Shown here one piece after another: positions 22,946 through 57,267 of a DNA stretch of 64,000 nt; position 1 is the stretch's first letter, and each line of letters opens with the position of its first letter. Below the pieces are notes generated by a model that worked only from the letters and a program-made list of their open reading frames with translations, made no database searches and was not told the origin of the DNA. The DNA comes from an uncultured delta proteobacterium (GTDB taxonomy: Bacteria; Desulfobacterota; Binatia; UBA9968): the NCBI GenBank assembly GCA_963727625.1, contig CAVSHR010000011.1, positions 256,001 to 320,000 of the forward strand, written 5' to 3'. The position numbers and the translations under genes were made by a program.

Positions 22946-22961
22946 TGGCACAACGGTTGCG
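22946..22961 (+). promoter_or_regulatory. sigma54 (-24/-12) promoter upstream of exosortase
   Basis: TGGCACAACGGTTGCG matches TGGCAC-N5-TTGC. Confidence 0.7.
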
Positions 22962-23226
22962 TAAGACAGATGCCAGCGATTTAAAGCGCCGTAACCCTTG
23001 CCTTTTCGGTCACTCAAACAGGGAATTGTTGCGATGAGGCTTGACGCGGGAGATGGAGTGGCACCAAAGCCTGATTCCACGTATATCGTCCCGCGAACCC
23101 GAAATCGGCAGTTTGAAGAAAATATGAACGGCAACATGCGCATATTGGATCTGGCACGCTTTTTCGAACCTGGAAAAACTCCTCCGGTGTACCGCGGCAT
23201 TTGCTGGTAAACTCTTTCTCTCAACC

Positions 23227-24811
23227 ATGACTGTTAACGCGATCAATTCTCGCTGGATCGGTTGGCGATTTCGCCAGCTGTTTAATCTCCGAGCGGCCCA
23301 GTGGTTCGGGGTGGCGTTGCTGTTTGGGTTGTTTTACGGGCGCCTTGTTCCAGGGTTGGTCCTGGATTGGTACGAGCACGAGACTTTCTCGTACGGATTT
23401 CTGGTTCCGTTTATCGCCGGCTATTTGATCTGGCAGAGCCGGGATCGACTCAAATCAATTTCCGTGACCCCGTCTCTCTGGGCCGCTGTCCCTTTGCTGA
23501 TCGCAGTTGTTTGGGTCTTATCGGGCAGACCATCGGCGAGCTGTTTTCCATGCGCCTGTCAATGATTTTGGCGCTGGCGAGTACGGTCTATTTGCTGCTG
23601 GGTACAGAATATTTCAAAGTTCTCTGGTTCCCGCTTTTTTATTTGCTGTTGATGATCCCGGCTCCCTACACCGTCCTGATCAAGGACCTGACGGGCGGTC
23701 ATCTGCGCTATATGAATGATTCCAAGCATGCGGCAACTATTCTCCAGCTGCTCGGTGTCCCGGTATTAGTAGAGGCTTATTTCATTCACATTCCCAACAT
23801 GACCCTGGAGGTTGCCGACGTTTGCAGCGGCGTATCTTCGGTGTTCGCATTATTTGCGTTGGGCACGGTCAACGCCTATTTCCTGCCAACAAGGAATAGT
23901 ACTCAAGGTCTTGCTGGTGGCGTGCACTTTCCCTTTTGCCATGATCGCCAATTTGATTCGCATCGTCGTGATCGCGGTGCTGGCTTATAACCTTGGCGCG
24001 ATTGTTTTTCAGTCGACTTTCCACTGGCTCACCGGTACGACTATTTTTACGTTGGCATTGATCATGCTTATTTCATCCGGCGAGTTTCTTCGGCGAAATT
24101 TTCCTGTGACCTCTGCGCGGAGCTCAGGTTCAACGGAGAGCCCCGGGGATGTGGTCACCAATGAGGGTGAGAGTTCCCTAGCCATATGGATGTCTGGTTC
24201 TGTCTGTCTAATCATTTTTGCCGCCGGACTATTTTTCGCAGAATTCCATCGGCAATGTTCGACGGATAAATCTTGCCGGTCAACTGGGGGCGCTCGCGAA
24301 CCTCGGGGGCTACACGGTCAGTGAAACGCGCTCCCCGGACACTTATCGAGACCCGGCTGCCGATGCGAAACTATCGGTCGTTGTTACGGATCGCGATAAC
24401 AATACTTCGGAAGTGTTTGTCGGATATGCGCGGAGCAAACCGCCGCTGTGCGGTTACAATCGCCGCAACTTGTTTTTCCGGAAAATTGGAATTGAGTATG
24501 GTTCAAGCCCGCGGACATCGAGGTCACCGGTAACGGCGCAATCCGCGGCAACTGGAGTCTTGACTCGCAAGGGCGATTCCATGCGGCTGGTTTTATATTG
24601 GTATCAAATTAACAAGAGCGCCTTCGCAGGAGAGTTTGAATACCGACTACGCCAGTTGAAAAGAGCGCTGCTCGAGCGCCGCAGCGACGGCGCTGTTGTC
24701 CGGCTCGCGACACCGGTCAAGGCTGGAGAACCCATTGAGACTGCACAAGCACGTCTCCGCGCGCTCGGCGGCGCTTTGTATCCAAAGCTGGTGAAGGTGT
24801 TACCGAAATGA
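23227..24811 (+). CDS. Exosortase (EpsH) probably fused to an EpsI domain, broken by several small indels
   Basis: W...YGFLVPFIAGYLIW; catalytic Cys in EVADVCSG, Arg in IANLIRI, His in FHWLTG. EpsI-type VLYWYQ...RSDGAVVRLATP. Pieces 23227..23565, 23301..23990, 23812..24324, 24218..24811. Confidence 0.85.
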
Positions 24812-24924: not shown

Positions 24925-25866
24925 ACCCACTACCTCATTACCGGCGGAGCCGGCTTTATCGGTTCTCACATCGTCAGACGCTTGGTCGCCGATGGAGAGC
25001 AGGTCCGTGTGGTGGATAACCTCTCAACCGGCGACATCAAACGGCTGGACGGCGTGCTTTCGTCGATTGAATTCATCGACGGCGACTTGGCCGATGAGAC
25101 GATCGCTCGGCAGGCGGTGGACGGCGTCGATCATGTGCTTCATCAGGCGGCTATGCCGTCCGTGCAGCGCTCGGTGGTCGATCCGGTCGGGACAAATAGG
25201 GCCAATGTCACGGCAACCGTCAATCTTCTCGAAGCCTGCCGCAAGGCCCAAGTGCAAAGGTTCGTTTACGCCGCGTCCTCGTCTGCTTACGGCGATACCG
25301 AGGTTCTTCCCAAACACGAGGATATGGTGCCGAATCCACTCTCGCCCTACGCATTGCAAAAATTCGTCGGCGAGCGCTACTGCAAGCTCTACCACGACCT
25401 GTACGGCTTGGAGACCGTCAGCCTGCGCTATTTCAATGTCTTCGGCCCGGGCCAGGACCCTCATTCCGAGTATTCCGCGGTCATACCGAAATTCATTACC
25501 AAGTTGCTCGCAAACCAGCCGGTCACCATCCACGGTGACGGCGAGCAGTCGCGCGACTTCACGTTTATCGACAATGTCGTCGAGGCCAATCTGCTAGCCG
25601 TCAAGGCGCCCGGCGCGGCTGGCAAAACGTGCAATATCGGCTGCGGCGAGCGCATCACGCTCAATCGTTTAGTTGCGCTCCTGGAAAAACAACTCGGCGT
25701 CAAAGCGCAGGTGAGCCATGGGCCGCCCAAGGCCGGCGACGTGCGCCACTCCTTGGCCGATATCGGCCGGGCAAAAACGATCCTGCGCTACCAGCCCAAG
25801 ATCGGGGTTGAAGAAGGGCTGCGCAGAACGATCGAGGCGATGAAAAAGAATAGGACTGAGCGATGA
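24919..25866 (+). CDS. UDP-GlcNAc/UDP-glucose 4-epimerase-like SDR (WbpP/TviC type)
   Basis: [57 protein letters not shown]. Confidence 0.92.
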   Translation: MATHYLITGGAGFIGSHIVRRLVADGEQVRVVDNLSTGDIKRLDGVLSSIEFIDGDLADETIARQAVDGVDHVLHQAAMPSVQRSVVDPVGTNRANVTATVNLLEACRKAQVQRFVYAASSSAYGDTEVLPKHEDMVPNPLSPYALQKFVGERYCKLYHDLYGLETVSLRYFNVFGPGQDPHSEYSAVIPKFITKLLANQPVTIHGDGEQSRDFTFIDNVVEANLLAVKAPGAAGKTCNIGCGERITLNRLVALLEKQLGVKAQVSHGPPKAGDVRHSLADIGRAKTILRYQPKIGVEEGLRRTIEAMKKNRTER

Positions 25867-26417
25867 GTAAAATTGATCGATTTGGGGAGCTAATTGCGTG
25901 GCAAAAAGCGCGACATCTTGCAAAGGCGGTTTATACCAGTACACGCCGTGATGGGTTTAGTCGAGACTTGGGCCTATCAAACCAAATTCAACGCGCAGCC
26001 GTTTCCATCATGGCCAATATTGCGGAGGGATTTGAGCGGGGTAGGAGAGCAGAATTTCACCAGTTTCTTTCGACGGCGAAAGCTTCGTGCGCAGAAACAG
26101 GTTCTCATCTATATGTCGCCTTAGATATTGGCTATTTGAAACAGGAAGAGTTCGAACGGCTTTTGCGTCAGGCTGAAGAGGTCGGGAGGGTAGTCGGGGG
26201 ACTGCGTTCGGCCGTTCAAAAACAGAAGGACATCCAATTGAATAAATCGAAACGTCTAGGCGAGGTTAGCCTCGTGATTACCCAGTTCTCAGCGCCCATT
26301 CCTGATCACCGGTTTGGCTCAGCCCTCAGTACTCAGCTCTCAGCCCTCAGTCCTCAGTACGCAGCACGCAGTCCTCGGCACTCAGTCCTCAGTCCTTTGA
26401 AAGTGGAGGCTCAATGA
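25863..26417 (+). CDS. Four helix bundle protein (23S rRNA-IVP/Avd-like), C-terminal tail encoded by heptamer repeats
   Basis: [50 protein letters not shown]. Confidence 0.92.
   Translation: MSKIDRFGELIAWQKARHLAKAVYTSTRRDGFSRDLGLSNQIQRAAVSIMANIAEGFERGRRAEFHQFLSTAKASCAETGSHLYVALDIGYLKQEEFERLLRQAEEVGRVVGGLRSAVQKQKDIQLNKSKRLGEVSLVITQFSAPIPDHRFGSALSTQLSALSPQYAARSPRHSVLSPLKVEAQ
26318..26394 (+). repeat. Tandem heptamer array, 11 x (CTCAGYN)
   Basis: CTCAGCC CTCAGTA CTCAGCT CTCAGCC CTCAGTC CTCAGTA CGCAGCA CGCAGTC CTCGGCA CTCAGTC CTCAGTC. Confidence 0.9.
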
Positions 26418-28615: not shown

Positions 28616-28681
28616 GCGGTCAGCAGTCAGCGATCAGCGCCAAAATGCCCCAGGACTGAGTCATGAGGACTGAGGGATGAG
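28616..28681 (+). repeat. Heptamer arrays upstream of the second four helix bundle gene
   Basis: GCGGTCA GCAGTCA GCGATCA, then GACTGAG TCATGAG GACTGAG GGATGAG with the ATG inside the last unit. Confidence 0.75.
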
Positions 28682-29096
28682 CAAAATCGCTCGGTTTGAG
28701 GATTTGGTCGCTTGGCAGAAGGCGAGGAGTTTAACCGCCGCGGTTTATAGGGCCACACGAAAGGGTGCGTTCAAAGGAGATTTTGGATTAGCCAACCAGA
28801 TACAGCGCGCATCTGTCATGTCGAATATCGCCGAAGGATTTGAGCGAGGCAGGCGAGCAGAGTTTCATCAGTTTCTCTCGACTGCCAAAGCCTCGTGTGC
28901 GGAAACACGCTCTCATCTGTATGTTGCCTTGGACGTCGGTTACTTGGAACAAACAGAGTTCGACCGCTTATTGCAGCAAGCCGAAGAGGTGGGGAGGGTG
29001 GTTGGCGGCCTGCGCGCGGCAGTTCAACGGCAGAGATATAACGACAAACAGAAATCCTCAGCGAATGAACGAGAGCAAGTGAAGAAATCGGTTTGA
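28677..29096 (+). CDS. Four helix bundle protein, paralogue of 25863..26417
   Basis: [52 protein letters not shown]. Confidence 0.92.
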
Positions 29097-29602: not shown

Positions 29603-30280
29603 ATGATGAAAAGTTTAACAAGAGGTTTGTTGGTTTTGGTAGCTGTTTTGGCTCTGAATGTCAGTCCGGCTTTGGCCGTCCTGCAGATCCAATTTTCGGG
29701 CATGGACTGGGCCTACGACGGCACCAATCTGTGTGATGCGACGACATGTACTGGTAGTAACGGAACCCGCGCAGAATCGGATCCGTTGCTTACCATGAGT
29801 TTTATCGTTGATGGCAATCCCGTCGGGACGCTAGTTTCGAACATTTGGTTTGACTCGTCTATAGTTGTGGGTGCGTTGCCCATTTCCGGATCGACCACCG
29901 GTTCGGGTGGATTTTTTGACATACTCACACAGAACGCAGATCCTGGCTGGGGGCTGGCGCTAGACATCGGAGATTGGGAAGTCGTGACAGCAGATAATGG
30001 CACAGTGACCATTAGCGTGAATGGTACTTTGAGTGATAATGGCATTTTTTCCCAGGATTTGCCCTTTGGGCTCGTCATCGGGGTGCCAGTGATCGTGTCG
30101 TTTTCCTCGAACACCCTGACTGGCATCACTTCGAGTGACGGCTTCCTGACAGGATTTGGTGCTTCGGGAACGGGTGAAATTACTGGTCAGAACGTTGTAC
30201 CCGAGCCGACTTCAATGCTCCTCCTCGGCATGGGTTTAATTGGACTAGGCGCTTGGGGAAGAAAGCGGATCAAGAAGTAA
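29603..30280 (+). CDS. PEP-CTERM sorting domain protein
   Basis: Signal peptide ending PALA; Gly/Ser/Thr/Asp-rich body; VPEPTSMLLLGMGLIGLGAWGRKRIKK. Confidence 0.95.
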   Translation: MMKSLTRGLLVLVAVLALNVSPALAVLQIQFSGMDWAYDGTNLCDATTCTGSNGTRAESDPLLTMSFIVDGNPVGTLVSNIWFDSSIVVGALPISGSTTGSGGFFDILTQNADPGWGLALDIGDWEVVTADNGTVTISVNGTLSDNGIFSQDLPFGLVIGVPVIVSFSSNTLTGITSSDGFLTGFGASGTGEITGQNVVPEPTSMLLLGMGLIGLGAWGRKRIKK

Positions 30281-30336
30281 CCTGAGTATCCATCCAACGG
30301 GAGGGGCGAAAGAGCCCTAATCCTATGAATCGCAAG

Positions 30337-30381
30337 AGCTCGAACGCCTATCTAGAACACTCTGGATGGGCGTTCGAGTTT
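30337..30381 (+). terminator. Stem-loop after PEP-CTERM gene 1
   Basis: CTCGAACGCCTATCTAGA acac TCTGGATGGGCGTTCGAG followed by TTT. Confidence 0.55.
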
Positions 30382-30457
30382 GAAGCGGGCTTGATGGTTG
30401 AACGGTTCCCGAGCAGTCTTGAACAAAACAGCGAGTTAAATTAGACTAGGACGCGTG

Positions 30458-30767
30458 ATGGATTTAAAAGAGCAAAAACCTGGACTTGGGAATCCGCAAG
30501 CTGACCCAGATGTCGAAGGCAAGCTGAGCGGCAACAATCAAGATGCTCGGTTGTCCCGTCGGCGGGCTCTGTTAACTGGCTTGGCAGCTAGCGCCGGCAG
30601 TGCTGACGCTAATCAGACGTCCTGTTTGGGCTTCGGACACCATCGCTTCCGCCGGAATTTGCGCTTCTCTGGCCGCGGCCAGCAGTCTCCATGCGGCAGA
30701 TCAGCAGTTGGCCACTGATTGTGAAAATTTGAATGCTGAATCGGTGGTCGACACAAATAACCCTTGA
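30458..30767 (+). CDS. Putative twin-arginine-leader precursor peptide of the HPr-rel-A module (one extra base at ~30590)
   Basis: Removing one base gives 102 aa: ...RLSRRRALLTGLAAAPAVLTLIRRPVWA-SDTIASAGICASLAAASSLHAADQQLATDCENLNAESVVDTNNP. Lies directly upstream of the PqqD gene. Confidence 0.65.
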
Positions 30768-30818
30768 GCATTTCGGAGTCGCCCAGGACGTAGCGGGAAA
30801 AGCCCACAAGGTTTAGTC

Positions 30819-31103
30819 ATGAAGGAAGCTGATGGGTTATTGTGGCAGTCCACAAAACTCATCTGGAAATCTTGGGGCGACGAAGTCTTGGTTTTCAACG
30901 TTGCCTCGGGAAATACCCATCTCTTAAGTCCGATGGCGGCCCAAGTCCTCAAATCCCTTGAAAAGCTGCCTCTTACGACCTCCCAAGTCGCACAAAAGTT
31001 AGCGCTTTCCGCGAACTTGAGTGTCGACGAAGAAATCTCTCAGCAAGTTGAAAATCTTATCTTAAACCTGGATGAATTGGGTCTCGTTGAATCCGCCGCT
31101 TAG
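30819..31103 (+). CDS. HPr-rel-A system PqqD family peptide chaperone (RRE)
   Basis: WKSWGDEVLVFNVASGNTHLLS...L.ELGLV pattern, 94 aa, translationally coupled to the kinase. Confidence 0.85.
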   Translation: MKEADGLLWQSTKLIWKSWGDEVLVFNVASGNTHLLSPMAAQVLKSLEKLPLTTSQVAQKLALSANLSVDEEISQQVENLILNLDELGLVESAA

Positions 31104-32047
31104 TGCAGGTTTTCCATCTATCGCCGGCTGATTTGTCAGCTCGACTCAGAGGCCAGGGCTTTTTCCTGCGCACCGGGCCGTTTGTCGTCCAGGTGCGCAC
31201 GGATGTGGGTCGAGTCGTGCAGGGGGTTCGAACGCTCTACGCCGATTTCCCTCTCGCCGAAAGCGCCGACTTTGCCGATTTTCATATGAGTTTTGTCGCG
31301 CCGCGCAGTTTGCGTTGCTGGTTTTACCCGCAGGTCTGTTTTCTCTTCGACGGCGAAAGCCCGTTTAAGCCTTTACCGTCGGATCAGGCGATGGCGATGT
31401 TCGAATGGTGTTTTAACTGGTGCATTTCCAGCTGCGGCAATCAATATTTGATATTTCATGCTGCGGCCGTTGAGCGCGGCGGATGCGCCGTGATCCTCCC
31501 CGGGCCGCCCGGTTCCGGGAAGAGCACGCTTTGCGCCGCCTTGGTAAATCGCGGCTGGCGGCTGTTGACCGACGAACTCACCTTGGTTTCACTTGAAACC
31601 AATTGCATCATCGCCTTGGCCAGACCCATCGGCTTGAAAAACGACTCTATAGAAGTGATTCGAAAGCTGGTCCCGGACGCGGTTTTTGGCCCGGAATGCC
31701 GGGACACGCTCAAGGGCAGGGTGGCGCACCTCCGTCCCCCGACTGAAAGTGTCTTACGCGTGGATCAACCGGCAAAACCCGCATGGGTGGTCTTTCCAAA
31801 ATATTCCGCCGATCAAGCAACCGTGGCGCGTCCGGTATCGAAAGCGCAGGCGCTTTTGCGCTGCGCGGCGAGCGCTTTCAATTACACGACACTTGGAGCA
31901 AAAGGGTTCGAAGTTCTGTCACCGATGATCGACGACGCGGACTGCTACGATTTCGAATATGGCGCGTTGGAGGAGGCGATCGATTGGTTTAACAGCCTCA
32001 AAGGATCGGCGTTTGCGACCGCCGGCAATGTTACCGATGTCTCATGA
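31103..32047 (+). CDS. HprK-related kinase A
   Basis: LRTGPF, PFKPLP...AMFEWCFNWCI, FHAAAVE, Walker A GPPGSGKST, GWRLLTDE, RPIGLKN, KGRVAH. Confidence 0.9.
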   Translation: MQVFHLSPADLSARLRGQGFFLRTGPFVVQVRTDVGRVVQGVRTLYADFPLAESADFADFHMSFVAPRSLRCWFYPQVCFLFDGESPFKPLPSDQAMAMFEWCFNWCISSCGNQYLIFHAAAVERGGCAVILPGPPGSGKSTLCAALVNRGWRLLTDELTLVSLETNCIIALARPIGLKNDSIEVIRKLVPDAVFGPECRDTLKGRVAHLRPPTESVLRVDQPAKPAWVVFPKYSADQATVARPVSKAQALLRCAASAFNYTTLGAKGFEVLSPMIDDADCYDFEYGALEEAIDWFNSLKGSAFATAGNVTDVS

Positions 32048-33135
32048 ATCATGACCTCTTAGCGCGGGCGCTAACCTCGCCCGATAGCCTGGGAATTCTG
32101 GCACTAGGAGAATGGGACAATCTGATTTCGCAGGCCCGGCGCGCGGGCTTATTGAGTCGGCTCGACGCGTTACTCGCTGAGCGTAAATGGCTCGATAATG
32201 TTCCACAACCGGCTCGTGCCCATCTCCAATCAGCGCGAGTCACCGCGGAGAACGAAGAGCGGGTGATGCTCTGGGAGGTCAACCGCCTACAGCGCGCTCT
32301 TAGTGAGATCGATTCCCCAATTATTTTACTCAAGGGGGCCGCCTACGCGCTAGCGGGTTTACCCGTCGCCCGGGGCAGGCTATCGACCGATGTGGATATT
32401 CTCGTTTCCAAGGAGCAACTCTCCCTGGTTGAGGAGAAATTGCTTGGGCACGGTTGGCAACACGCGAAGTTAGAGGAATACGACCAGTTTTTCTATCGCA
32501 CTTGGTCGCACGAGCTGCCGCCTTTAGTTCATAAACAACGTAAAACAGTCGTCGACGTGCATCATACCATCTTGCCACCGACGGGGCGTTTGCATCCCGA
32601 TCCGAAAAAACTCATTGCCGCATCGATACCGCTGGATGGGACGAGGTTTCGGGTGCTAGCGCCGGCGGACATGGTGCTCCATAGCGCCGCCCATGCGTTT
32701 CAGGACGGTGATCTGACGCGCGGGCTGCGCGATCTCGTCGATATCGACGGTCTCCTGCGCTACTTCAGTCAGAAAGAAAAGTTTTGGGACGAGCTCGCGG
32801 CGAGGGCCGAAGAGTTGGATCTCCGTCGGCCGCTATATTACGCCCTGAGATATTCTCATTTCTATCTTCAGACGCCGGTCTCGCAGAACATACTTGAACG
32901 ATCGAAAAGCTGGCGACCGGCTTGGCCGGCGACCGCGCTAATGGACATGATCGTCGACAACGTCATAACTGCTGGTCCTCGGCGCAAAGATTTCCGTCTC
33001 AAATTATCCCGCCAACTTCTTTACATCCGGTCCCACTGGCTGCGCATGCCGCCAGCGCTCCTGGCTAAACATCTTTTGCATCAGAGCTTTCGAAGGTGGT
33101 TCGCTCGACCGCACGACACGGCTGTGGCTCGCTAG
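32044..33135 (+). CDS. Nucleotidyltransferase family protein (NTP_transf_5-like)
   Basis: ILLKGAAY, R...DVDILV, WSHELPP, DVHH, LRDLVD, YIRSHWLRMP. Confidence 0.88.
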   Translation: MNHDLLARALTSPDSLGILALGEWDNLISQARRAGLLSRLDALLAERKWLDNVPQPARAHLQSARVTAENEERVMLWEVNRLQRALSEIDSPIILLKGAAYALAGLPVARGRLSTDVDILVSKEQLSLVEEKLLGHGWQHAKLEEYDQFFYRTWSHELPPLVHKQRKTVVDVHHTILPPTGRLHPDPKKLIAASIPLDGTRFRVLAPADMVLHSAAHAFQDGDLTRGLRDLVDIDGLLRYFSQKEKFWDELAARAEELDLRRPLYYALRYSHFYLQTPVSQNILERSKSWRPAWPATALMDMIVDNVITAGPRRKDFRLKLSRQLLYIRSHWLRMPPALLAKHLLHQSFRRWFARPHDTAVAR

Positions 33136-33625: not shown

Positions 33626-34342
33626 ATGATGCGAACTGGTAAAATTTACAATGGGATTGTTTTGGGGTTTATAACCGCACTCTTTTGGGTTGTAAATCCC
33701 AATGTAGCCCGGGCCACAATCATTCTTAACCAAACCTGGACGACTGATGTGCAGTGCGGCGGTGACGGTTGTTTTGGATCCACCTACCAACTCATTATCG
33801 ACGATGGAGGCACAGACGATAATAATTTTACGGCGAGGCTGATCGTCGATGCTTCGAACTATTCTCCCCCTGGGGGAAAGACCGGTTATGATTTTATCTC
33901 GGCGGTAGATTTCAAGGTGGCGAGCAGCGTGATCAGCGCGAGCTTAACGGCGGCCCCCGGAAACCTCTCCGACTGGCATGTGGCATTCAATGCTGGCCAG
34001 GTTTCCGGAGACTGCGGCGGCAGTGGAAACGGCTTTGTTTGCGGCAACGACATCGGCACAAACTCGGCAGCCCCGGTGCCAAACGCAACTCCGTACGAAT
34101 GGGATTTTTCGTTTTCATTGGCCGCCGGCAAGGATAACAGCGATATTAGCTTCAGTCATTTAGGGACGCGCTACTGCACCGCAGCAGATACTTGCACCGG
34201 CGTGATCGTTTCCATCGACCAACCTGGAAGTCCAGGCGAAAAAGTTCCAGAGCCGTCGACGATGCTGTTGTTGGGAGCTGGTCTTATCGGCCTGGCCACC
34301 TGGGGAAGAGGCCGCTTGGGCCAACGCGCGGAAACAATGTAA
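33626..34342 (+). CDS. PEP-CTERM sorting domain protein (Cys-rich)
   Basis: Signal peptide, six Cys in three close pairs, VPEPSTMLLLGAGLIGLATWGRGR. Confidence 0.93.
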   Translation: MMRTGKIYNGIVLGFITALFWVVNPNVARATIILNQTWTTDVQCGGDGCFGSTYQLIIDDGGTDDNNFTARLIVDASNYSPPGGKTGYDFISAVDFKVASSVISASLTAAPGNLSDWHVAFNAGQVSGDCGGSGNGFVCGNDIGTNSAAPVPNATPYEWDFSFSLAAGKDNSDISFSHLGTRYCTAADTCTGVIVSIDQPGSPGEKVPEPSTMLLLGAGLIGLATWGRGRLGQRAETM

Positions 34343-38743: not shown

Positions 38744-40514
38744 TTAGCGTCCGTGTTTTCCCTTTGAGGAACCGGCGCCGCCGGAAGAGGAAATGATTAC
38801 GGATTCCACAGATGACACTCCGAAATGGCCGGCAGCATCGTAAGCCTTTGCTTTTAGGGTATGGGTTCCGTTGCTTATTGATTTAGTAGCGTTAAGTTTG
38901 AAAGTCCAAGGAGATGAGTTGGCGGTCGAAGTTAAAATGTCATCAATATAAAGCTCCACTGCCGTGACACTGCCATCCGGGTCATTTGGATCGGTATTTA
39001 CCGTAAGGAATCGCCCGTCGTAAATTACTCCGGTTATTTGTACAGTAGGAGGGAGAGTGTCTTGCGATTGGACGCTGATGCTATCCTGTGTCGAAGTGGC
39101 TTGGCCGCCGGCGAGGTCGTAAGCTTTTGCCATCAGAGTGTGAGTTCCGGAGAGCCCGTTGGTATTCCATTGAAATGAGTAGGGAGAGGTTGATGTACTG
39201 CTTGCAAATTGTCCATCGACGTAGAGATCAACTTTAGCTACTCCAACTGATGAATTTGCAGCGACGTCAACATTGACCATTCCAGAGACCAAGGATCCAG
39301 TGGAAGGGGAAACAATTGCGACAGATAAAGAATTGCCCGTTGTTGCTTGTGCTGCTTGCAGCGCTCGATAGACATTGATACGTCCCCACCCATAGTACGG
39401 ATCGAAACCGGGCGACCCCAAATCGTCAGCATTGCTCTGTATTAGATCGACTACTTGGGCATTGCTGAGAGCTGGATTGAGAGAAAAGAGGAGTGCTGCC
39501 AAACCTGCAACCTGGGGAGTGGAAAAGGATGTCCCGTAAACGCTCCAATATCCCCCGCCGTTTTGCGTTGTATAGATCCAGTTCCCTGGTGCTGCGACGG
39601 AGATCCAGTTTCCGTAATTTGAGAAGCTTGCGAAAGCGTCTGATGAATCGTTTGTTGCAGATACCGCGAGGACGTTTGTGCACGCCGCGGGATAATAAGG
39701 CGAACTGGTCGAGTAGTTTCCCGCAGCCGCCGCGATGACCAGTCCCTTACTCCAGGCATAGTTCACTGCACTTTGAAGCGTCGAAGAAGGGCTGGAACCG
39801 CTCAAACTAATATTGATGACCTTTGCACCGTGGTCGGCCGCGTAGTTAATGGCCGCAGCAATGTTGGAGTACGTCCCCACATGTGAAGTGTCCCAGACGA
39901 CTATTGGTATAACGGGGTTTTGCCAAGCTACTCCCGCGATACCGATTCCCGAATTGCTCGAGGCTGCGAGAGTTCCGGCAACCGCAGTGCCATGACCATC
40001 TCCGTCTTGGGTATCGGTGTTGTTCGCCAGGAAATTATACCCCGCCATTAATTTCCCAGACAGATCGGGGTGATTTGGATCCACGCCGGAATCAATCACC
40101 GCAATCGGCACTGAAGCTGATCCGGTGGTAAGGTCCCAGTCCGGACGGAGCTGAAATTCGCGGAAGATGCCATTCACTCGAATACCCCGGATCATTAGGC
40201 ACTAGGTTGGCTTCAGCAATAAAGTTTTTCTCGACGAACTGAACGGCCGAATTTTTTGAAAGAGCCGCTTCGATTGCGTCTAATGCATTATCCGGAACTT
40301 TAATCTGATGAACTTTGATTTGTGAAAGTGTCTTGAGTTTTTGTCCGCCGTAAATTCTATACACATTTTCGAGTTGCGCATCCGAGACGCCTGCCTTTGG
40401 GGCGATCAATAGCTCACCCGGAACGTGTGGCGAGCTCTGCGTGCGAGCGAGAGGGGGAGAGACCAACATCCCTGCAGCAATCAACACTAGCGTACATAGA
40501 ATGGATTTAAACAC
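38744..40514 (-). CDS. Secreted S8 subtilase with propeptide and two Ig-like domains (1-nt frameshift at ~40140)
   Basis: Signal peptide and propeptide in 40092..40514 (PNDPGYSSEWHL); catalytic VIDSG, GHGT, GTSFS; two repeats of V.LY.D...HTL.AKAYD. Confidence 0.9.
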
Positions 40515-40607
40515 TGATTGTATCCCTTGCCTTTCTTGCTTACTTGTCTCGGCGAACGCAAGTCGGGATCTTAACGCTCCGTGAGGATTTCAGGGAGTTC
40601 AGATCCT

Positions 40608-48123: not shown

Positions 48124-48690
48124 TTGATTAAAAATGTTGTTTTAAACAATTTGACACCTTCAGACGCGATTATATGCACGGTTAGTGGGCTCGCGGCGTT
48201 CTTCGATATGAGGTTAAGGAGAATTCCGAACTGGCTCATCGCGTCCGGTTTGCTCTGCGGGGTCGTCTTGAACTATTTCCAAGGAGACGGGCGTTGGCTC
48301 CAAAGCGTTTTTGGGTTTGCCGTCGGGGTCGCTGTGCTGGTCTTGCCATTTGCCTTTGGATGGATCGGGGCGGGCGACGTTAAGTTTTTTGGCGTCGTCG
48401 GTGCTCTTTTGGGGATATCTTGGCTGCCACGGGTGTTTTTCTATTCTGCTCTTGTTGCCGGAGTGATTGCGGTTGGCTATTTGGTTGTCGGTTTGTCGAA
48501 ATTTTCCCGCTTAAAATCCTATTGGTTGGACGTTAAAACCGCCGTTCTGAGTATGGGGAATGTGTTACCGGAAACCGCGTCTGTGCGTAATCATGACTCT
48601 GGTGCCTCAGTGCCGTGGGGTGTTGCCTTCGCGGCTGGAATGATTATCGCATACTATTTTGATCCGAGCGGTCGATGGTCCGGATTTTAA
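48124..48690 (+). CDS. cpaA: Prepilin peptidase (A24, CpaA/TadV)
   Basis: D...RRIPNWL, GAGDVK, VPWGVA. Confidence 0.92.
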   Translation: MIKNVVLNNLTPSDAIICTVSGLAAFFDMRLRRIPNWLIASGLLCGVVLNYFQGDGRWLQSVFGFAVGVAVLVLPFAFGWIGAGDVKFFGVVGALLGISWLPRVFFYSALVAGVIAVGYLVVGLSKFSRLKSYWLDVKTAVLSMGNVLPETASVRNHDSGASVPWGVAFAAGMIIAYYFDPSGRWSGF

Positions 48691-48773
48691 ATATGGACAA
48701 ATTCGAACAATGACGATTTCTAAGATTTTGCGGTAATTACTTGGCAAATCATTACGCTTAGTGAGGAGCTGAT

Positions 48774-49601
48774 ATGCAGAATAGACTAAAAATTGCGTTA
48801 GTCGTGGCGGTGTTTTTCGGTTTAATCGCCGCCTACGGGATATACAATTTTCTCAGCAGTCAACAAAAACAGGCGGATTCACTCCGAGCCGCAAACCAAG
48901 ATATCGTGGTTGCAGCGAAAGATATTCCGCCCGGGACGACCCTCAATGAGGAGGCGATAAAAAAGGGATTGATTAAGACCACGCCGTGGCCCAAAACATC
49001 GATCCCGGCAGGTGCGTTTTCTTCTCCTCAGCAGGTGATCGGCAAGGTGAATCGGGTAAAGATTCTAGCCAACGAGCCGCTTTTGGAGTCCCGTCTTGCC
49101 GGTGAGGGCGCGGGGCTTACGGTCCGGTTGGATCCGGGCAAGCGCGCGTTAGCTTTGTCGGTGAACGAGATCGTCGGGGTCAGTGGTTTTATCGTTCCCG
49201 ATGATCGGGTCGATGTTATTTTGACCACGAGCCCATTAGGAACGGGGCAGGATACAAAAATTTCAAAAATCATTATGCAAAATAAACGGGTTCTATCCGT
49301 TGCGCAGAGCACGGAGCAAAAGGATGGGAAACCCCAACTCGCGCGTTCGATCACGTTAGAAGTCACTCCTGAAGAAGCGCAAAAGCTGACTTTAGCAACG
49401 CAGGAAGGGCAGATTGTTCTCGCCTTGCGCGGTCTCGGCGATGATGCGCCGGTAGTCACCAAAGCCAGCAACAAGCGAGATATCTTGTCGCTCGCTTCGG
49501 TGTCCCCTAAGCCATCCTCCGCAGGTGCGGTTGCGCCGCCGCCGGAAAAATATCAGGTCGAGGTCATTATGGGTAGTAAGCGAAACGTGGTGGAATTCTA
49601 A
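48774..49601 (+). CDS. cpaB: Flp pilus assembly protein CpaB/RcpC
   Basis: VVAAKDIPPG SAF domain, GVSGFIVPDDRVDV, TLEVTPEEA, LALR. Confidence 0.95.
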   Translation: MQNRLKIALVVAVFFGLIAAYGIYNFLSSQQKQADSLRAANQDIVVAAKDIPPGTTLNEEAIKKGLIKTTPWPKTSIPAGAFSSPQQVIGKVNRVKILANEPLLESRLAGEGAGLTVRLDPGKRALALSVNEIVGVSGFIVPDDRVDVILTTSPLGTGQDTKISKIIMQNKRVLSVAQSTEQKDGKPQLARSITLEVTPEEAQKLTLATQEGQIVLALRGLGDDAPVVTKASNKRDILSLASVSPKPSSAGAVAPPPEKYQVEVIMGSKRNVVEF

Positions 49602-49619
49602 ATGGGAAGGGGAGAGTTC

Positions 49620-51125
49620 ATGAGTATTCGTTGTTTAGTCCGGGGGCGGCTAAATAGAATTGTCCTGGCGGCGACGATGGCGTTTGCGTTGACGGCGCAA
49701 ACGGCACTAGCGCAGCCGCAGATGGCGCCGACAATTACCGTAACGGTAAACAAATCGATGGTGTTTAGGCTCGCTGAGAAGGTTAAGACCGTACAGGTCT
49801 CGCAGCCGCAAGTGGCGGACGTGCGAGTGATTAGGCCGAATCAGCTTTTGATCAATGGCAAGGGTATCGGTACCACTTCGCTGATTCTTTTTGACGAAAA
49901 GGGCGAGGTTACCAATTTTGATTTGATCGTCACTCCGGATATCTCAGCCATGCGCGCGCAGCTACGCTCGATTTTTCCCGATGAAAAGATCGAAGTTTCG
50001 ACTTCGGGCCCTGCGATTGTTCTGAGAGGCGAGGTGTCAAACGAGACGGTCTATGACAGGGTGCTCGAGATCGCTACAACCTACCTCCCGCCCAAACCTC
50101 CCGCCGCGGTTGCGCCGTCGACCACTACGATTACTGTCAATCCAACTACCACGACCCCACAGTTTGGTTCCGGCTTCAAGGGTGGCGGTCAGGTGGCCTT
50201 TGAGGATGCGTCGGATATGACATCTGTAAACCGCTTCGGGAACAGAAAAACCGAAGGAATCGTGGATTTGCTGGTCATCAAGGAGATTCGCCAGATCGAG
50301 CTCGATGTTATCGTTGCGGAAGTGTCACTTAGCAAGGCGCGTGAGATCGGTTTTAATTTTCGCTACAGCGGACCAACCCAGGTCCAATCGGCAACATCTG
50401 CCCTCGGCTCGGTGTCCGACAGTGGCAGTAACCCAACGGTTTCATTGCCCGCATTCTTGGGCGCACCAACCGGCGCCTTCACTTATATTAATGGTGCTTA
50501 TTCGCTCGTATCGCTCTATCGATTATTGCAAAATAAGGATCTCTCTGAAATTCTCGCGCAGCCGCGCCTGGTGATCAAAAACGGCCGCGCCGGCGGGTTT
50601 TTATCCGGCGGCGAGATTCCCATACAGCAGGTTACGGCCAACAACTCAACCGTCGAGTTTAAAGAATTCGGCGTTCGGCTTAATTTTGTTCCGACGATCA
50701 CCTGGTCCAACCGGATTGATCTTAAGGTTCTCCCTGAGGTGAGCGAGCCCAGCTCAAGTCTAATTGTCAACGGCATTCCGGCGATTACCACGAAACGCAC
50801 GCTGAGCCAGGTGGAGATGAAAGAGGGGGAAAGCCTCATTATCGGCGGTTTGTTGGACCGGAGAATCGTAAAAAACCTTGCCAAGTTTCCTATCTTGGGC
50901 GACGTGCCGATTTTGGGAGCGCTGTTTAGAAGCACGCGGTTTAGCAACAAGGAGACGGAGCTGATTTTTGTAATTACTCCGCGCATTGTCCGTACGATGA
51001 AGCCGGGCGAAAAACCGAATCTTCCCGGAATAGAAAAATATGACGATCCGGATATGCGCCAGGTGCCCGTGCCCATGGGACCGCAAGCGAGAAAATCCGC
51101 GACTCCAGGAGCCTCGATTCCGTGA
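49620..51125 (+). CDS. cpaC: Tad secretin CpaC/RcpA
   Basis: N-terminal pilus-formation and BON-like region, FLSGGEIP, KEFGVRL, PILGDVPILGALFRS...ETELIFVITP. Confidence 0.93.
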   Translation: MSIRCLVRGRLNRIVLAATMAFALTAQTALAQPQMAPTITVTVNKSMVFRLAEKVKTVQVSQPQVADVRVIRPNQLLINGKGIGTTSLILFDEKGEVTNFDLIVTPDISAMRAQLRSIFPDEKIEVSTSGPAIVLRGEVSNETVYDRVLEIATTYLPPKPPAAVAPSTTTITVNPTTTTPQFGSGFKGGGQVAFEDASDMTSVNRFGNRKTEGIVDLLVIKEIRQIELDVIVAEVSLSKAREIGFNFRYSGPTQVQSATSALGSVSDSGSNPTVSLPAFLGAPTGAFTYINGAYSLVSLYRLLQNKDLSEILAQPRLVIKNGRAGGFLSGGEIPIQQVTANNSTVEFKEFGVRLNFVPTITWSNRIDLKVLPEVSEPSSSLIVNGIPAITTKRTLSQVEMKEGESLIIGGLLDRRIVKNLAKFPILGDVPILGALFRSTRFSNKETELIFVITPRIVRTMKPGEKPNLPGIEKYDDPDMRQVPVPMGPQARKSATPGASIP

Positions 51126-51191
51126 GTTGGAGTTCAACGTGGCATTTGGGTTTGATCAAGGCGAATCGTTGCAACGAGATAAAGCGAAATA

Positions 51192-52409
51192 ATGTCGTTA
51201 CCCATTTATTTAGTAGGCGAAGATAGCCTGGCCTTAGCCTCTTTAAAGCAGCAGCTCGAAAAAGAGGCTAAGGGATCGGTCGAGCCGAAGATATACGCCT
51301 ACGGGGAGGCTTTCGACGCGCTCAAGAATCATAGCGGTCCGGCCATCGCCATTGTCGATATTAACCTCGACCCGGAGCGGGCGTTTGGTGTAGCCGAACA
51401 GATCAAGCTCAGGCTGGTTAACGTTCGCTTGGTCATGACTGCGCCGACGGGTGCCCCCGACACGATCTTGCGTGCCATGCGGGCCGGCGCCGAAGAGTTT
51501 CTCTCTCAGCCGTTTAATTGGCCCGAGGTGCTAAAGTCGCTCGATTCGATCAGTAAAAAAGTTGACCTTCATGCGACGAAATCGGTCGAGCGCGGGCATA
51601 TTGTGGCGGTTTCATCCAACAAGGGAGGCGTCGGCTCCACCACCGCGGCGACCAATATTGCCGCATGTCTGGTGGCGCAGAAAAAGTCGGTTTGCTTGGT
51701 CGATCTGGTGCTGCAGTTCGGTTCGGTCACAAGTTTTCTTAATATCGATACCTCCTATACGATTCTTGATTTAGTCAAAAACTTGAAACGTATCGACCCG
51801 CTTTTTCTCGACGGCTCGTTGGTCAAGCATGCCTCCGGCATTCGAGTGCTTGCCGAACCTTTTTATGCCGAGGATGCCAGGCGAATTACCCCGGCTGATA
51901 TCGACGAGATCCTGGACGTTCTGGCCCAATCCTTCGATTATGTCGTCGTCGACACTTCGAAGGAGTTCGACGATATGCTGGCCTTGGTTCTTGATAAAGC
52001 GAACTTGATTTTGTTTATCACGGAAATGGATGTCCCTTCGCTCAAGAGCGCGCACCGCGCCCTGGAGTTGTTCGAGCGCATGGGGATTTATGAGAAGAAA
52101 ATCCGCCTGATTCTCAATCGCTACGTGAAGAGCAAATTGATGACTTTGGAGTCGGTCGAAAAAGCGCTTGGGGTGAAAGTGTTTTGGACCTTGCCGAACA
52201 ATTATCCGGTGGCGATTGCGGCGGTCAATCAAGGTCTGTCGATTCAAGAATGTGATCCGAAGTCCGACATCGCAAGAAGCTACGCGGGGTTGACCGACGA
52301 GGTTTTGAAAACGTTTATGTTCGCGAGTACCTCTCGAGTGGAGTCGGCGGATAAAAGGTCGGGGCTGCTCGGACGATTCCTGCCGCCGGTACGAGGACTA
52401 ATCAAGTAA
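51192..52409 (+). CDS. cpaE: Pilus assembly protein CpaE/TadZ (atypical REC + MinD-like ATPase)
   Basis: AMRAGAEEFL, SNKGGVGST, VDLVLQFG, FDYVVVD, LILNRY. Confidence 0.92.
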   Translation: MSLPIYLVGEDSLALASLKQQLEKEAKGSVEPKIYAYGEAFDALKNHSGPAIAIVDINLDPERAFGVAEQIKLRLVNVRLVMTAPTGAPDTILRAMRAGAEEFLSQPFNWPEVLKSLDSISKKVDLHATKSVERGHIVAVSSNKGGVGSTTAATNIAACLVAQKKSVCLVDLVLQFGSVTSFLNIDTSYTILDLVKNLKRIDPLFLDGSLVKHASGIRVLAEPFYAEDARRITPADIDEILDVLAQSFDYVVVDTSKEFDDMLALVLDKANLILFITEMDVPSLKSAHRALELFERMGIYEKKIRLILNRYVKSKLMTLESVEKALGVKVFWTLPNNYPVAIAAVNQGLSIQECDPKSDIARSYAGLTDEVLKTFMFASTSRVESADKRSGLLGRFLPPVRGLIK

Positions 52410-52418
52410 GGAACAATT

Positions 52419-53813
52419 GTGATGAAGAATCCAGCTTTTGAATCGGATAAGGAACGTTGGGACGCCGATAGGAATACCGGCGACGGCGCGCGCGGGCCGT
52501 TGCGGACGATGCAGGTAACCAACCCCGACGTGATCCTGCAGGATTTGCGGTTACGAATCCACCGCCGGCTGATCGATACTCTGGATCTGTCCAAGCTATC
52601 CAATTTGGAGATGGAGCGGGTTCGCGTCGAGATCCGTCGCATTCTCGAAGACTTGGTGATGGCGGAAGCGATTCCGCTGAGCCGCGCCGATCGCGATCGC
52701 CTGGTCATGGAAGTCCAGCACGAGGTATTCGGCTTGGGTCCGCTGGAAACCCTGATGAAGGACCCGGAAATTTCCGATATTTTGGTAAACTCCTCCAATC
52801 AAATCTACGTTGAACGTTACGGCAAGCTCGAAAAGACCGACGTTCGTTTCCGCGACGACGCGCATCTGATGCAGATTATCGAGCGCATCGTGACTCGGGT
52901 CGGCCGCAGAGTCGACGAAAGCTCGCCCATGGTCGACGCCCGGTTGGCCGATGGCTCGCGCGTCAACGCGATCATCCCGCCGTTGGCTTTGGATGGTCCG
53001 GTTCTTTCCATTCGGCGTTTCGGGGCCGAGCGGCTGACCATCAACGATTTGATTCAGTTCAACTCGCTGCCTCCGCAGATGGCGGAGGTCGCCTCGGCTT
53101 GCGTTAAGTCGCGTCTGAATATGATTGTCTCCGGCGGCACGGGCGCCGGCAAAACGACGCTGCTGAACTGTTTGTCGAATTATATTCCCGAGACCGAACG
53201 TATCGTGACCGTCGAAGATTCCGCCGAGTTGAAATTACAGCAGGAGCATGTGGTGCGGCTGGAAACCCGACCGCCGAACATCGAAGGCCAAGGCGCCGTG
53301 ACCGCTCGCGATTTGGTTCGAAACGCTTTGCGTATGCGGCCCGATCGGATCGTTATCGGCGAGGTCCGCGGCGGCGAAGCGCTCGACATGATGCAAGCGA
53401 TGAACACCGGTCACGACGGTTCGATCAGCACCGTCCACGCCAACAGCGCCCGCGATGCGCTTTCCCGTCTTGAGACGATGATGCTTATGGCCGGGATCAA
53501 TTTGCCGGAAAAAGCGTTGAGAGAGCAGATGGCTTCCGCCATCGACATTATCGTCCAGTTGACCCGCTTGAGCGACGGCAGCAGGAAGGTCGTGGAATTC
53601 TCCGAAGTCACGGGCATGGAAGGAAATACCATCACGACTCAAACCATCTTTAAGTTCGAGCAGCGAGGCGTTGAAAACGGCAAGATCCTCGGCGAGTTTG
53701 TCGCCACCGGCGTGATGCCGTCCTTTATGGAACGTCTGGAGCGTTACGGTTTCAAAATACCGAACACGCATTTTCTGCCGGTAGCCATCGGAGGGAAGAG
53801 AAAAGCGTTATGA
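52419..53813 (+). CDS. cpaF: Pilus assembly ATPase CpaF/TadA
   Basis: [50 protein letters not shown]. Confidence 0.97.
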
Positions 53814-54784
53814 GTTTACTCCTCATCAGTATATTTGCCTTCCTATCGGCGGTTTCGCTGGTGGTTATTCTGTTCATGCTGCCGATGGCGGTGCAGGATA
53901 CCGCCCAGGCTAGAATCAAGCGCCGGCTCACGGCCATCGGGAGGCTTGAGTACACTTCCAGGGCGGAAATGGCGAGTATTCTCAAGACCTCGATCTATAG
54001 CGAGTTGCCATGGCTGAATAACCTGTTGTCCCAATCTAAATTGATCCACAGAATCGATTTAATGCTCGAACGGGCGAATATCGACATGACGCCCGGGATG
54101 TTTATGCTTTGTTCGCTGGGCGCATCCGGGGTGACTTTTTTCCTGGCGTCAATCATCGGTCAGCCGACGATTATGTGTTTTGTCTTCGCGTTGGTTGCTC
54201 TGGTCTGTCCGTTTCTCTACGTCCAGTTTATTATCTGGAAGCGGTTGCGAAAGTTTCTCGAGCAAATGCCCGACGGTCTCGACATGATCAGCCAGAGCCT
54301 CCAGGCCGGTTTGGGTTTGACCCAGGCGATGGTTTTTGTCGCTAAGGAGATGCCGGACCCGCTCGGAACCGAGTTTTCGGTATTCATTGAGGAGGTCAAT
54401 CTCGGTCTGCCGTTGCCGGACGCCTTGAAGAAATTCGAAGAACGGATGAGCCTGCCGGAGGTTCGTTTATTCAATACCGCGCTCATGGTGCAACGGGAAG
54501 TCGGCGGCAGCCTGGCGGAGTTGTTGACTAAATTGGCGAATATTATCCGCGACCGGTTTCGAATCGAGCGCTTGATCAAGAGCTTGACCGCGCAAAATCG
54601 AATCAGCGCCTGGACGGTGTGCTCGGTGCCGCCGTTTCTGGCAGTGTTCATGTTTATGCGCGAACCGAAAATGATGAACGAGATGCTCCAACATCCGGTG
54701 GGCCGAGGGCTTCTTGCCGCGGCATTGGTTTTGGAGGTCGTCGGAATCCTGGTATTCCGCAAGGTTATTAAGATCCATATCTAG
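53810..54784 (+). CDS. tadB: Tad inner-membrane platform TadB
   Basis: QMPDGLD...[29 protein letters not shown]. Confidence 0.93.
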
Positions 54785-54793
54785 GAGATTTGA

Positions 54794-55723
54794 ATGGAAC
54801 TTTTAATTGCGGTTGGATTCTTCGGGGTGGTTTCGGCCATCATTTATTTTTTCGTTGCTTCCAAAGCCCCGGTTGCCGAGGACGCCATTCAGCAACGCTT
54901 GCAAAACATCGGCATTCAAACTGAGCCAAGAAGCCAGATTCTTCTCCACCAAGATGAAGAGACGACGTTTTGGGAGCGCGTCGCCAATTTCTTTTTCGGC
55001 GATCGTGAGTTGCCCGAACGCTTCAATATGATCAGCCGGCGGTTGCACCAAGCGGGTTATCGCGGCAACCGCGCCGTGCGCATCTTTTGGGGGCTGAGAA
55101 TCTTTCTTTGCCTCGCCTTCGCCTTTGCCGGACTATTCGTCTCGCTGACCTCGGGGGCGGCGATGAGCGATTTGTTGCTGCTCACGGTCGTCGGCGCGGC
55201 GGTCGGCTATATGCTGCCGTTTCTAACGGTCTTTCGTAAGTCCCGCGCGCGAGTGCTGGCCATGCGCGAGACCTTGCCTGACACGCTTGATCTGATCGTG
55301 GTCTGCGTCGAAGCGGGGATGGGCATCGACTCCGCTTTAAACCGCGTCGGTAAGGAACAAAACGAGCAGAAACTCGCGTTGGGCGAAGAATTGGTTTTAG
55401 CCTCGCAGGAGATGCAGGCGGGAGCGGCGCGCAAGGAAGCGTTGCTTCGGTTGGCGGATCGCGTCGGGATCGAGGAGTTTCAAGCGCTGGTGACGTTTTT
55501 GACGCAAACCGAAGAAATGGGCGGCAGCATCGCGCGTTCGCTGCGCGTCTATGCCGAGACCATGCGCGATAAGCGCAGCCAAGCCGCCGAAGAGGCGGCG
55601 CGCAAGACCGTCATCAAGCTGATCTTCCCGTTGGTGTTTTTTATTCTCCCGGCCATTTTTATAATTCTGCTCGGACCTCCGGGCTTGTCTATCATGAAGA
55701 TGCTTTCGGATCCGTTGCATTAG
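54794..55723 (+). CDS. tadC: Tad inner-membrane platform TadC
   Basis: LPDTLDLIVVCVEAG, GGSIARSLRVYA, AEEAA...KLIFPLVFFILP. Confidence 0.93.
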   Translation: MELLIAVGFFGVVSAIIYFFVASKAPVAEDAIQQRLQNIGIQTEPRSQILLHQDEETTFWERVANFFFGDRELPERFNMISRRLHQAGYRGNRAVRIFWGLRIFLCLAFAFAGLFVSLTSGAAMSDLLLLTVVGAAVGYMLPFLTVFRKSRARVLAMRETLPDTLDLIVVCVEAGMGIDSALNRVGKEQNEQKLALGEELVLASQEMQAGAARKEALLRLADRVGIEEFQALVTFLTQTEEMGGSIARSLRVYAETMRDKRSQAAEEAARKTVIKLIFPLVFFILPAIFIILLGPPGLSIMKMLSDPLH

Positions 55724-55735
55724 GGAGTCAATGCC

Positions 55736-56134
55736 GTGCCGGTCATAAATTTAACCAAACAGACTTGGCTCGCCACCAAGGTGCGCAAGGCGGATAACTT
55801 CATGACCCGGCTGGTCGGTTTGCTCAAAAGAACCACTCTCGGACCGGAAGAAGCCCTGTGGCTGTTGCCGAGCAAGGGGATTCATACGATCGGCATGAAG
55901 TTTCCCATCGACGTGGTGTTCCTAAACAAAAATTATCTGGTCATCGGATTGATCGCCGGCATGGCGCCGAATCGTCTGAGCTCCATTCACTTGCGCGGTT
56001 ATAGCGTGCTCGAGTTGCGCACCGGGACGCTCAAGAAATCGCGCACGGAGATAGGCGATCAATTAGAAATATCGTTAGCGGAAGTTTCGGAGATGGACGA
56101 CTTGAGGGACAACCGCTTGAGTCACATCGGTTAG
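55736..56134 (+). CDS. DUF192 family protein
   Basis: ADNFMTRLVGLL, IHTIGMKFPIDVVFL, VLEL. Confidence 0.88.
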   Translation: MPVINLTKQTWLATKVRKADNFMTRLVGLLKRTTLGPEEALWLLPSKGIHTIGMKFPIDVVFLNKNYLVIGLIAGMAPNRLSSIHLRGYSVLELRTGTLKKSRTEIGDQLEISLAEVSEMDDLRDNRLSHIG

Positions 56135-56185
56135 TTTGTTAGTTCGTTAAGGAGGACGGTTTCACTTCGTATTTGCTGTTTTGAG

Positions 56186-56710
56186 GTGAAGACCATGAAA
56201 AACAATTTCCTAAAATGCCTTGCTACTCGCAAATGCTCCCGTGTTTTGCAGTCTTTCCTGTCACGCTCCAAGAGTAATGGGCAGGCGCTCGTCGAATTTA
56301 CTCTCGTCTTCCTTCTGCTTCTGGTTATCATTTGGATCCCGGCTGATTTCGGACTGGCTTTTATGACGGGCCAACTCGCCTCGAACGCGGCCCGAGAGGG
56401 CGCTCGAATCGGTTCGGCTAGCCCAACTTTCACTGCGGCCACTATTGAAGCAGAGACTTGCAAGAGGCTGCCGTCTGCGTTGTTGAGCGATCCTGGGGCT
56501 TCGGGTGGACTTGTGTCTTGTTCTCCATATTCCAACGCCAGAGTTCTTGCTTCGTTGGTTGGCAGCGGGTGCAACCAGACGGTCCAGGTTACGGTGAAGG
56601 GAAGCTACAATTACTTTTTCTATCAGCTTTTGCGCTTCATGGGTATGTCCATTGGGAATAGTGAGACGATTACGCGACAGGCCGAGATGCGTTGGGAGCA
56701 TCAGTGCTAG
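56186..56710 (+). CDS. tadE: TadE-like pseudopilin
   Basis: GQALVEFTLV, NAAREGAR. Confidence 0.88.
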   Translation: MKTMKNNFLKCLATRKCSRVLQSFLSRSKSNGQALVEFTLVFLLLLVIIWIPADFGLAFMTGQLASNAAREGARIGSASPTFTAATIEAETCKRLPSALLSDPGASGGLVSCSPYSNARVLASLVGSGCNQTVQVTVKGSYNYFFYQLLRFMGMSIGNSETITRQAEMRWEHQC

Positions 56711-56734
56711 TTCGGGTTCCGTACCGAGGTTGAT

Positions 56735-57217: not shown

Positions 57218-57267
57218 CCGCCAGCGGCACGTATCCATCGCCATAGCTCGGTAATTGCGGAGGCCTC

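Follow-up and report, generated by a model that had tools for sequence, protein, structure and literature searches.

The window, a contiguous stretch of 64,000 nt from the genome of an uncultured delta proteobacterium, harbors an island composed of three PEP-CTERM genes, PrsT, an exosortase/EpsI gene as well as many glycosyl and nucleotide-sugar genes. Between two of the PEP-CTERM genes, a short and broken open reading frame precedes genes encoding a PqqD-family RRE, an HprK-related kinase and a nucleotidyltransferase (NTase) (Table 1).

Table 1. Features of the cassette and of the island around it (positions in the window).
Feature	Position	Strand	Remarks
Exosortase/EpsI gene	23317..24811 (frame changes noted over 23128-24811)	+	Genome's only clear copy; at least three pieces, several frames
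Flanking PEP-CTERM protein	29603..30280	+	Context
Putative precursor/substrate gene of the HPr-rel-A cassette	30458..30767	+	Interrupted by one additional base (30589-30591); repaired length 102 aa; one of the short family members
Conserved leader	30554..30632	+	Twin arginine, hydrophobic stretch, Pro -13, Thr -9, predicted A-x-A site (inferred); spans the break
Predicted 44-aa mature part	30633..30764	+	Cys/Ser residues; loose match to family C...S-x-x-x-S...S-x-H; candidate phospho-acceptor
PqqD-family RRE	30819..31103	+	TIGR04353, 59.1 bits vs cut-off 35
HprK-related kinase A	31103..32047	+	TIGR04352, 375.3 bits vs cut-off 200; H119, Walker A K140, D157-E158
Nucleotidyltransferase	32044..33135	+	PF14907, E 4.8e-59; D116-x-D118 and D171
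Flanking PEP-CTERM protein	33626..34342	+	Context

The cassette and its broken first gene

The open frame that begins at position 30458 runs through ...SRRRALLTGLAA and is then continued in another frame as ...APAVLTLIRRPVWA... up to the stop codon at 30767. Removal of one base joins both parts in translation to a 102-aa product, whose 44-aa tail contains six Ser, three Thr and two Cys residues. The original prediction of a one-base deletion near 30590 is thereby reproduced, and the base can be narrowed to three adjacent positions: removal of 30589 or 30590 affords ...LAAAP..., removal of 30591 ...LAATP..., and both types of sequence are found among homologues. The uncorrected 87-aa product, already suspected to be meaningless behind the break, was rejected as a real protein because the precursor family described below is matched by the shifted frame and not by its own 3' half, which matches nothing. 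With the family profile, this gene is the genome's sole clear match (3' half, E 8.9e-5), and the search found no second precursor copy there. The repaired reading is not a product of chance, since a genome of the same genus (G023) carries an intact open reading frame in the same register, with 13 residues from RRR to P, and since its leader, measured from RR up to A-x-A, has the 25 aa that are the mode of the family (42 of 60 leaders). A gap of 51 nt separates the gene from that of the PqqD protein. Upstream of the precursor and behind the PEP-CTERM gene lies a long hairpin (30336-30381; about -35 kcal/mol for 30336-30392) that is present in a single copy in the genome and is a candidate terminator or processing stem.

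The three following genes had been described as translationally coupled, in agreement with overlaps of 1 nt between RRE and kinase (TAG/GTG) and of 4 nt between kinase and NTase (ATGA). The RRE family profile matches the lasso B1 structures TfuB1 (E 3e-4) and TbiB1. In the kinase, His119, Lys140 and Asp157 align to HprK and Glu158 replaces the second Asp, which thus results in a D-E pair instead of the D-D pair of lasso kinases (H-K-D-D in the accessible part of PMC9266682). The NTase residues D116, D118 and D171 are invariant in 41 of 41 homologues; its structure model (pLDDT 92.4) resembles nucleotidyltransferases in a generic and weak manner (best E 5e-3), and a search for a solved structure with sequence kinship to it found none. 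These alignments support the view that kinase and NTase keep their catalytic residues. In a quick tree, the kinase groups with those of three other short-precursor loci at an SH-aLRT of 83, from which no evolutionary order is claimed given the nature of the tree and this support value. As initially noted, the 38 window proteins scanned (15 at E<=0.1 and 23 at E<=1e-18, with the Tad region at 48-58 kb outside the scan) include no lasso cyclase; a B2 peptidase is likewise absent from them, and the genome's single match to PF13471 sits on another contig.

The frameshift in the precursor gene may stem from an error of the assembly or from recent decay, with roughly equal probability, and this copy of the cassette may be non-functional. 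A real break in a decaying island would leave the cassette without a substrate in this organism, a reading that applies to this copy only and that we place slightly below an even chance. It is favored by the state of the exosortase gene, which changes frame at least twice, around 23515 and 23890, and probably at further places, by the position of the extra base outside any homopolymer, by the missing second precursor copy, and by orthologue tests elsewhere in the genome, of which only 2 of 147 revealed frameshifts (an internal stop occurred in 9 of the 147 best alignments). In addition, a secreted subtilase with Ig-like domains (38744-40589, minus strand) is frameshifted near 40100-40140. In contrast, no break affects the genes for RRE, kinase, NTase and PrsT or the three PEP-CTERM genes, the exosortase returns to its frame through its two main shifts, and the broken precursor keeps the family consensus on each side of the break. 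Clustered indels can also stem from poor local polishing. A codon model tracked several of the frame changes in the exosortase gene but did not locate that of the short precursor gene. Being broken in the assembly, the copy in the window is poorly suited for experiments. As leader peptidase, the subtilase at a distance of 5.6 kb was considered and rejected, as none is reported among the homologous flanking proteins scanned and the gene itself is frameshifted.

Coupling of the precursor gene to the kinase

Relatives of the kinase were collected from genomes (11 loci), from 60 genomes of relatives, of which only G023 scored above the cut-off, and from metagenomes (best 80 of 561). A strong kinase open reading frame was present at 89 loci, 58 of them with at least 1300 nt of upstream sequence. 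At 54 of these 58 loci, an open reading frame with the leader lies just before the RRE gene, and the same applies to 34 of 38 once the 20 seed loci are removed. Among the four remaining loci, two (L076 and L082) carry divergent leaders, with which the count rises to 56 of 58. At the other two (L030 and L032), RRE and precursor are both missing upstream; here, kinase and NTase stand without adjacent partners on contigs that end at the NTase.

A test independent of gene order employed 301 genomes from one proteobacterial order, with 21 precursor candidates scored per genome and a profile built from cassette-adjacent genes (one of 23 seed leaders, L105, was mis-cut). The kinase was found in 57 genomes and the precursor profile in 55, with 49 shared, i. 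e. the profile was matched in 49 of 57 kinase genomes vs 6 of 244 others. Of the eight kinase-only genomes, the seven that were retrieved each contain a divergent RR-leader open reading frame beside the cassette; the eighth is a contig-edge fragment. Including the divergent forms, kinase and leader gene occur together in 56 of the 57 kinase genomes of this sample. All of these counts, for loci and genomes alike, overstate independence because their members are related. The six precursor-only genomes comprise four weak matches within frames of 512-785 aa, a degraded cassette (G157) and a tandem pair (G317). The precursor was detected downstream of the kinase in five genomes, in three of which it was confirmed behind the NTase. 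The suggestion that the hidden frame is a gene of the cassette, to be judged by a conserved upstream frame in homologous loci, thus passed its test. Judged by these comparisons, the upstream gene is almost certainly the cognate partner of the cassette.

Several loci depart from the common arrangement. In G317 (L137 3901-5688), two strong precursor genes lie in tandem, and no kinase was found in the genome. One open frame of L134 (2557-4488) is matched by both the RRE and the kinase profile and is possibly an RRE-kinase fusion. No NTase follows the kinase in L008 (7046-8125) and L010 (7037-8116); its place is taken by a different gene together with an acyl-CoA-ligase-like gene, hinting at other tailoring chemistry at these loci with a C-terminal Ser motif.

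At E<=0.001, the profile of the precursor family matches 2,779 clusters (50% identity). Scans of 47 long forms gave no NCBIfam model and one weak Pfam match. A literature search over main texts, largely outside subscription journals, found neither a description of the family nor an experiment on it, and no paper naming the TIGR04352/TIGR04353 families. At the level of sequence, a small gene of an unnamed family with an export-like leader accompanies the trio of RRE, kinase and NTase in slime-producing bacteria. Its product is most likely a protein phosphorylated by the trio. The best explanation of the locus is a four-gene module for leader-guided protein modification, of which published family models cover only two genes: kinase and PqqD protein score above the curated HPr-rel-A cut-offs, and the upstream partner has no model.

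Leader and serine motif of the precursor proteins

The family consensus consists of the leader RRRxxxxGLxAxPVxxTLxSRPxxA followed by CxxxSxxxSxNxS. Among 60 leaders, the distance from RR to the predicted cut amounts to 24-25 aa in 56, and T/S occupies position -9 in 59. Motif counts in the larger library refer to the 144 of 150 matches that carry the leader motif. RR occurs in 143 of them (partly built into the profile), T/S at -9 in 143, and the Cys/Ser motif in 138, at a median mature length of about 155 aa. Proline is found at -13 in 104 matches and is replaced by G in 22 and A in 10. The leaders end in A/V-x-A/G behind a hydrophobic stretch, and neither a PEP-CTERM tail nor a C-terminal membrane helix was seen in any of the 150 proteins. 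Such a leader appears more fixed than export alone would need.

Two features assigned to the leader by the original prediction need correction. Of the RRE motif [Y/W]xxP, the common Pro at -13 is present, but the aromatic residue is missing and G or A stands for P in 32 of 144. The proposed twin-arginine signal is matched by the nearly universal RR, and the window copy fits a strict TATFIND-type pattern; this pattern is fitted by only 27 of 60 leaders and 83 of 144 library matches, so that about half misfit. The genome encodes two TatC genes.

Conceivably, the precursor is a kinase substrate whose RR leader merely serves as docking and cleavage tag, with the product remaining intracellular, anchored in the membrane or leaving by another route. 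The many leaders outside the strict Tat pattern and the unusually fixed leader length and T-L-x-S-R-P segment would fit such a tag, as would the LPP leaders treated below, which are cut by a signal-peptidase-like enzyme and yet are not export signals (accessible part of PMC13381572). The combination of RR, hydrophobic stretch and A/V-x-A/G ends, the paired Cys in the mature part, and a scan of 107 flanking proteins (E<=1e-45) that revealed neither an exporter nor a peptidase as conserved argue against it, and we regard this alternative as improbable in comparison with a leader that also directs export.

Most family members are proteins of 140-215 aa, and the short forms, the window's among them, have mature parts of 19-81 aa. 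The proposed short RiPP-like peptide would describe the window copy and not the mostly folded majority. A model of a long form displays a compact domain behind a flexible leader (mean pLDDT 83.5, leader about 50). For this fold, Foldseek gave no match at E<=0.001, the best Z score was 3.5, and Atlas matches were confined to unnamed clusters; on the basis of the model, these searches show neither a new nor a known fold. Two Ser residues are invariant in 47 long forms, whose mature part also carries paired Cys. In a separate subfamily, the Ser motif (T-x-S-C-W-x-S and variants) is located at the C-terminus instead, which suggests that selection acts on the motif and not on the scaffold. The window's copy matches the motif loosely, and the family-conserved Ser is not assignable there.

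Possible chemistry, related systems and context

Genetic coupling is the part established here, and all of the chemistry is what we infer. The RRE would dock to the leader at a segment that extends roughly from Pro-13 to Leu-8, and a Ser of the S-x-x-x-S motif would be phosphorylated by the HprK-type kinase; we consider these steps likely. By analogy to PsmN, the NTase might then cap the phosphoserine with a sugar or nucleotide, a tentative step with a little less than an even chance. The leader may double as twin-arginine signal, the modified product leaving via Tat and a housekeeping signal peptidase cutting at A-x-A, which seems reasonably probable and would account for the lack of a peptidase and an ABC exporter of its own. 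The product would act in the PEP-CTERM/exopolysaccharide matrix, where a covalent role as primer or anchor appears rather unlikely. Overall, the sequence from RRE-guided Ser phosphorylation and NTase capping to Tat export into the matrix is moderately favored. Against it speak the lack of Y/W at -16, the G/A substitutions for P and the share of leaders that miss the Tat pattern, along with the D-E pair of the kinase in place of the lasso D-D, the uncoupled loci L030, L032, G317, L008 and L010, the loose Ser motif of the window's copy and, for the NTase, the lppN deletion without effect described below.

A different role for the enzymes is suggested by the island, which is rich in nucleotide-sugar enzymes: kinase and NTase could produce a sugar phosphate and then an NDP-sugar for exopolysaccharide, with the precursor as exported matrix protein and PqqD as its private export chaperone. 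The kinase-NTase pairs of L030 and L032, which have no RRE or precursor next to them, a PF14907 gene reported in a phosphonate neighbourhood, and the generic, weak fold matches of the NTase would be in line with small-molecule chemistry. Against this reading speak the invariant Ser and a Ser motif that is retained at one end or the other although the proteins are unrelated in other respects, and homologous kinases act on peptide Ser; we deem it quite unlikely and retain the precursor as the favored kinase substrate.

The closest known system is that of the Bacillota LPPs, so that an analogue is already published. According to the accessible part of the report (PMC13381572, Nat Commun 2026), these linear polyphosphorylated peptides arise from capsule loci with an RRE, an HprK kinase and an NTP transferase. 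LppK phosphorylates Ser3 of the linear precursor, which becomes polyphosphorylated, and deletion of lppN had no effect. LppB needs Y/W at leader position -16, LppA has Pro at -13, and the clusters, reported as restricted to Bacillota, include an SpI peptidase and an MsbA-like exporter. As far as this part of the report allows comparison, both systems share a variable-length precursor with conserved leader, a discrete RRE, an HprK kinase, an NTP transferase, the lack of a cyclase, Pro at -13 and a place in polysaccharide loci. The LPP leader YxxPxVLxHQxIxFETxxS has only this Pro in common with the leader found here, which displays a twin arginine and a hydrophobic stretch and no Tyr. Also unlike the LPP clusters, no SpI-like peptidase or MsbA-like exporter is encoded among the flanking genes of the window and none recurs among the 107 homologous flanking proteins at the strict threshold, and the products are mostly folded proteins of 140-215 aa with a PEP-CTERM/exosortase link in Gram-negative phyla. 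Because the working is LPP-like and two features of LPP membership are absent, the locus is filed as a member of HPr-rel-A. The idea of an undescribed system would apply to the precursor family, for which neither model nor description was found, and not to the combination of linear precursor, RRE, HprK and NTase, published for Bacillota in 2026.

Phosphorylated lasso peptides likewise combine an HprK-type Ser kinase with an uncharacterised NTase (PadeK of paeninodin; PsmK/PsmN of pseudomycoidin). In the accessible part of PMC6993621, PsmN is needed for a +162 Da shift on phospho-pseudomycoidin and the DxD motif of the NTase for hexose addition. In contrast to these systems, the scanned window proteins contain no macrolactam cyclase or B2 peptidase, and the candidate acceptor is mostly not a C-terminal Ser. 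Term searches in the accessible parts of PMC7470986, PMC12710340, PMC13751637 and the epsSMASH preprint gave no mention of HPr-type kinases. A different RiPP-like cluster was noted in another genome of the genus (G019, L016 321-3390), comprising by inspection a lasso-B2-like gene and a 63-aa WxxPxL peptide, together with genes for a radical SAM protein, a PqqD protein and a kinase of HprK-like type.

With the PEP-CTERM/XrtA system, the cassette shares genomic context and co-occurrence, whereas its precursor is devoid of a PEP-CTERM tail. Of the 57 kinase genomes, 55 carry PrsK (TIGR02916) vs 41 of 244 others, which, together with the genes of the island, bears out the predicted PEP-CTERM/exopolysaccharide setting; since 41 of 96 PrsK genomes lack the cassette, it represents an optional add-on to PEP-CTERM/exosortase. 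The window's genome encodes a PrsK-like protein below the cut-off on the same contig. At a strict threshold, a gene with an XrtA/PEP-CTERM name above cut-off is among the nearest flanking genes in at least 11 of 35 loci, and no exporter or peptidase recurs. Sites resembling a sigma-54 consensus precede 14 of 54 precursors, compared with a single one for the reverse strand and an expectation of 0.3 from shuffles, several of the 14 being close kin. These PrsK, flank and sigma-54 counts are patterns and not p-values, because kin are not independent.

For a formerly orphan cassette, carried by 57 of the 301 genomes sampled from one proteobacterial order, the precursor provides a named and testable candidate substrate. 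If the proposal is true, the LPP chemistry of 2026 would extend to Gram-negative bacteria and folded proteins, and a leader common to RRE and Tat machinery would be at hand. Being near-exclusive to PEP-CTERM/exosortase genomes, the cassette offers a handle on the tie between matrix polysaccharide and protein in flocs and biofilms. RiPP logic transferred to a surface protein, with a single leader acting as RRE dock and Tat signal and a Ser-phosphate-sugar link, built by kinase and NTase on the exported protein, that primes or anchors the PEP-CTERM-associated exopolysaccharide in floc- and biofilm-formers, would be the most far-reaching version, which we regard as unlikely.

Directly before the window's precursor, neither a sigma-54 nor a sigma-70-like site was found. 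Across the window, 11 sigma-54-like matches compare with 5.3 expected, and sites with 0-1 mismatch occur at 22946, 29549, 33440 and 35970, before the exosortase and the three PEP-CTERM genes. Two similar four-helix-bundle genes (25863-26417 and 28677-29096) surround the PrsT TPR gene, the first of which matches TIGR02436. Further downstream, a Tad/Flp pilus cluster is apparent from inspection of the open reading frames at 48124-58279.
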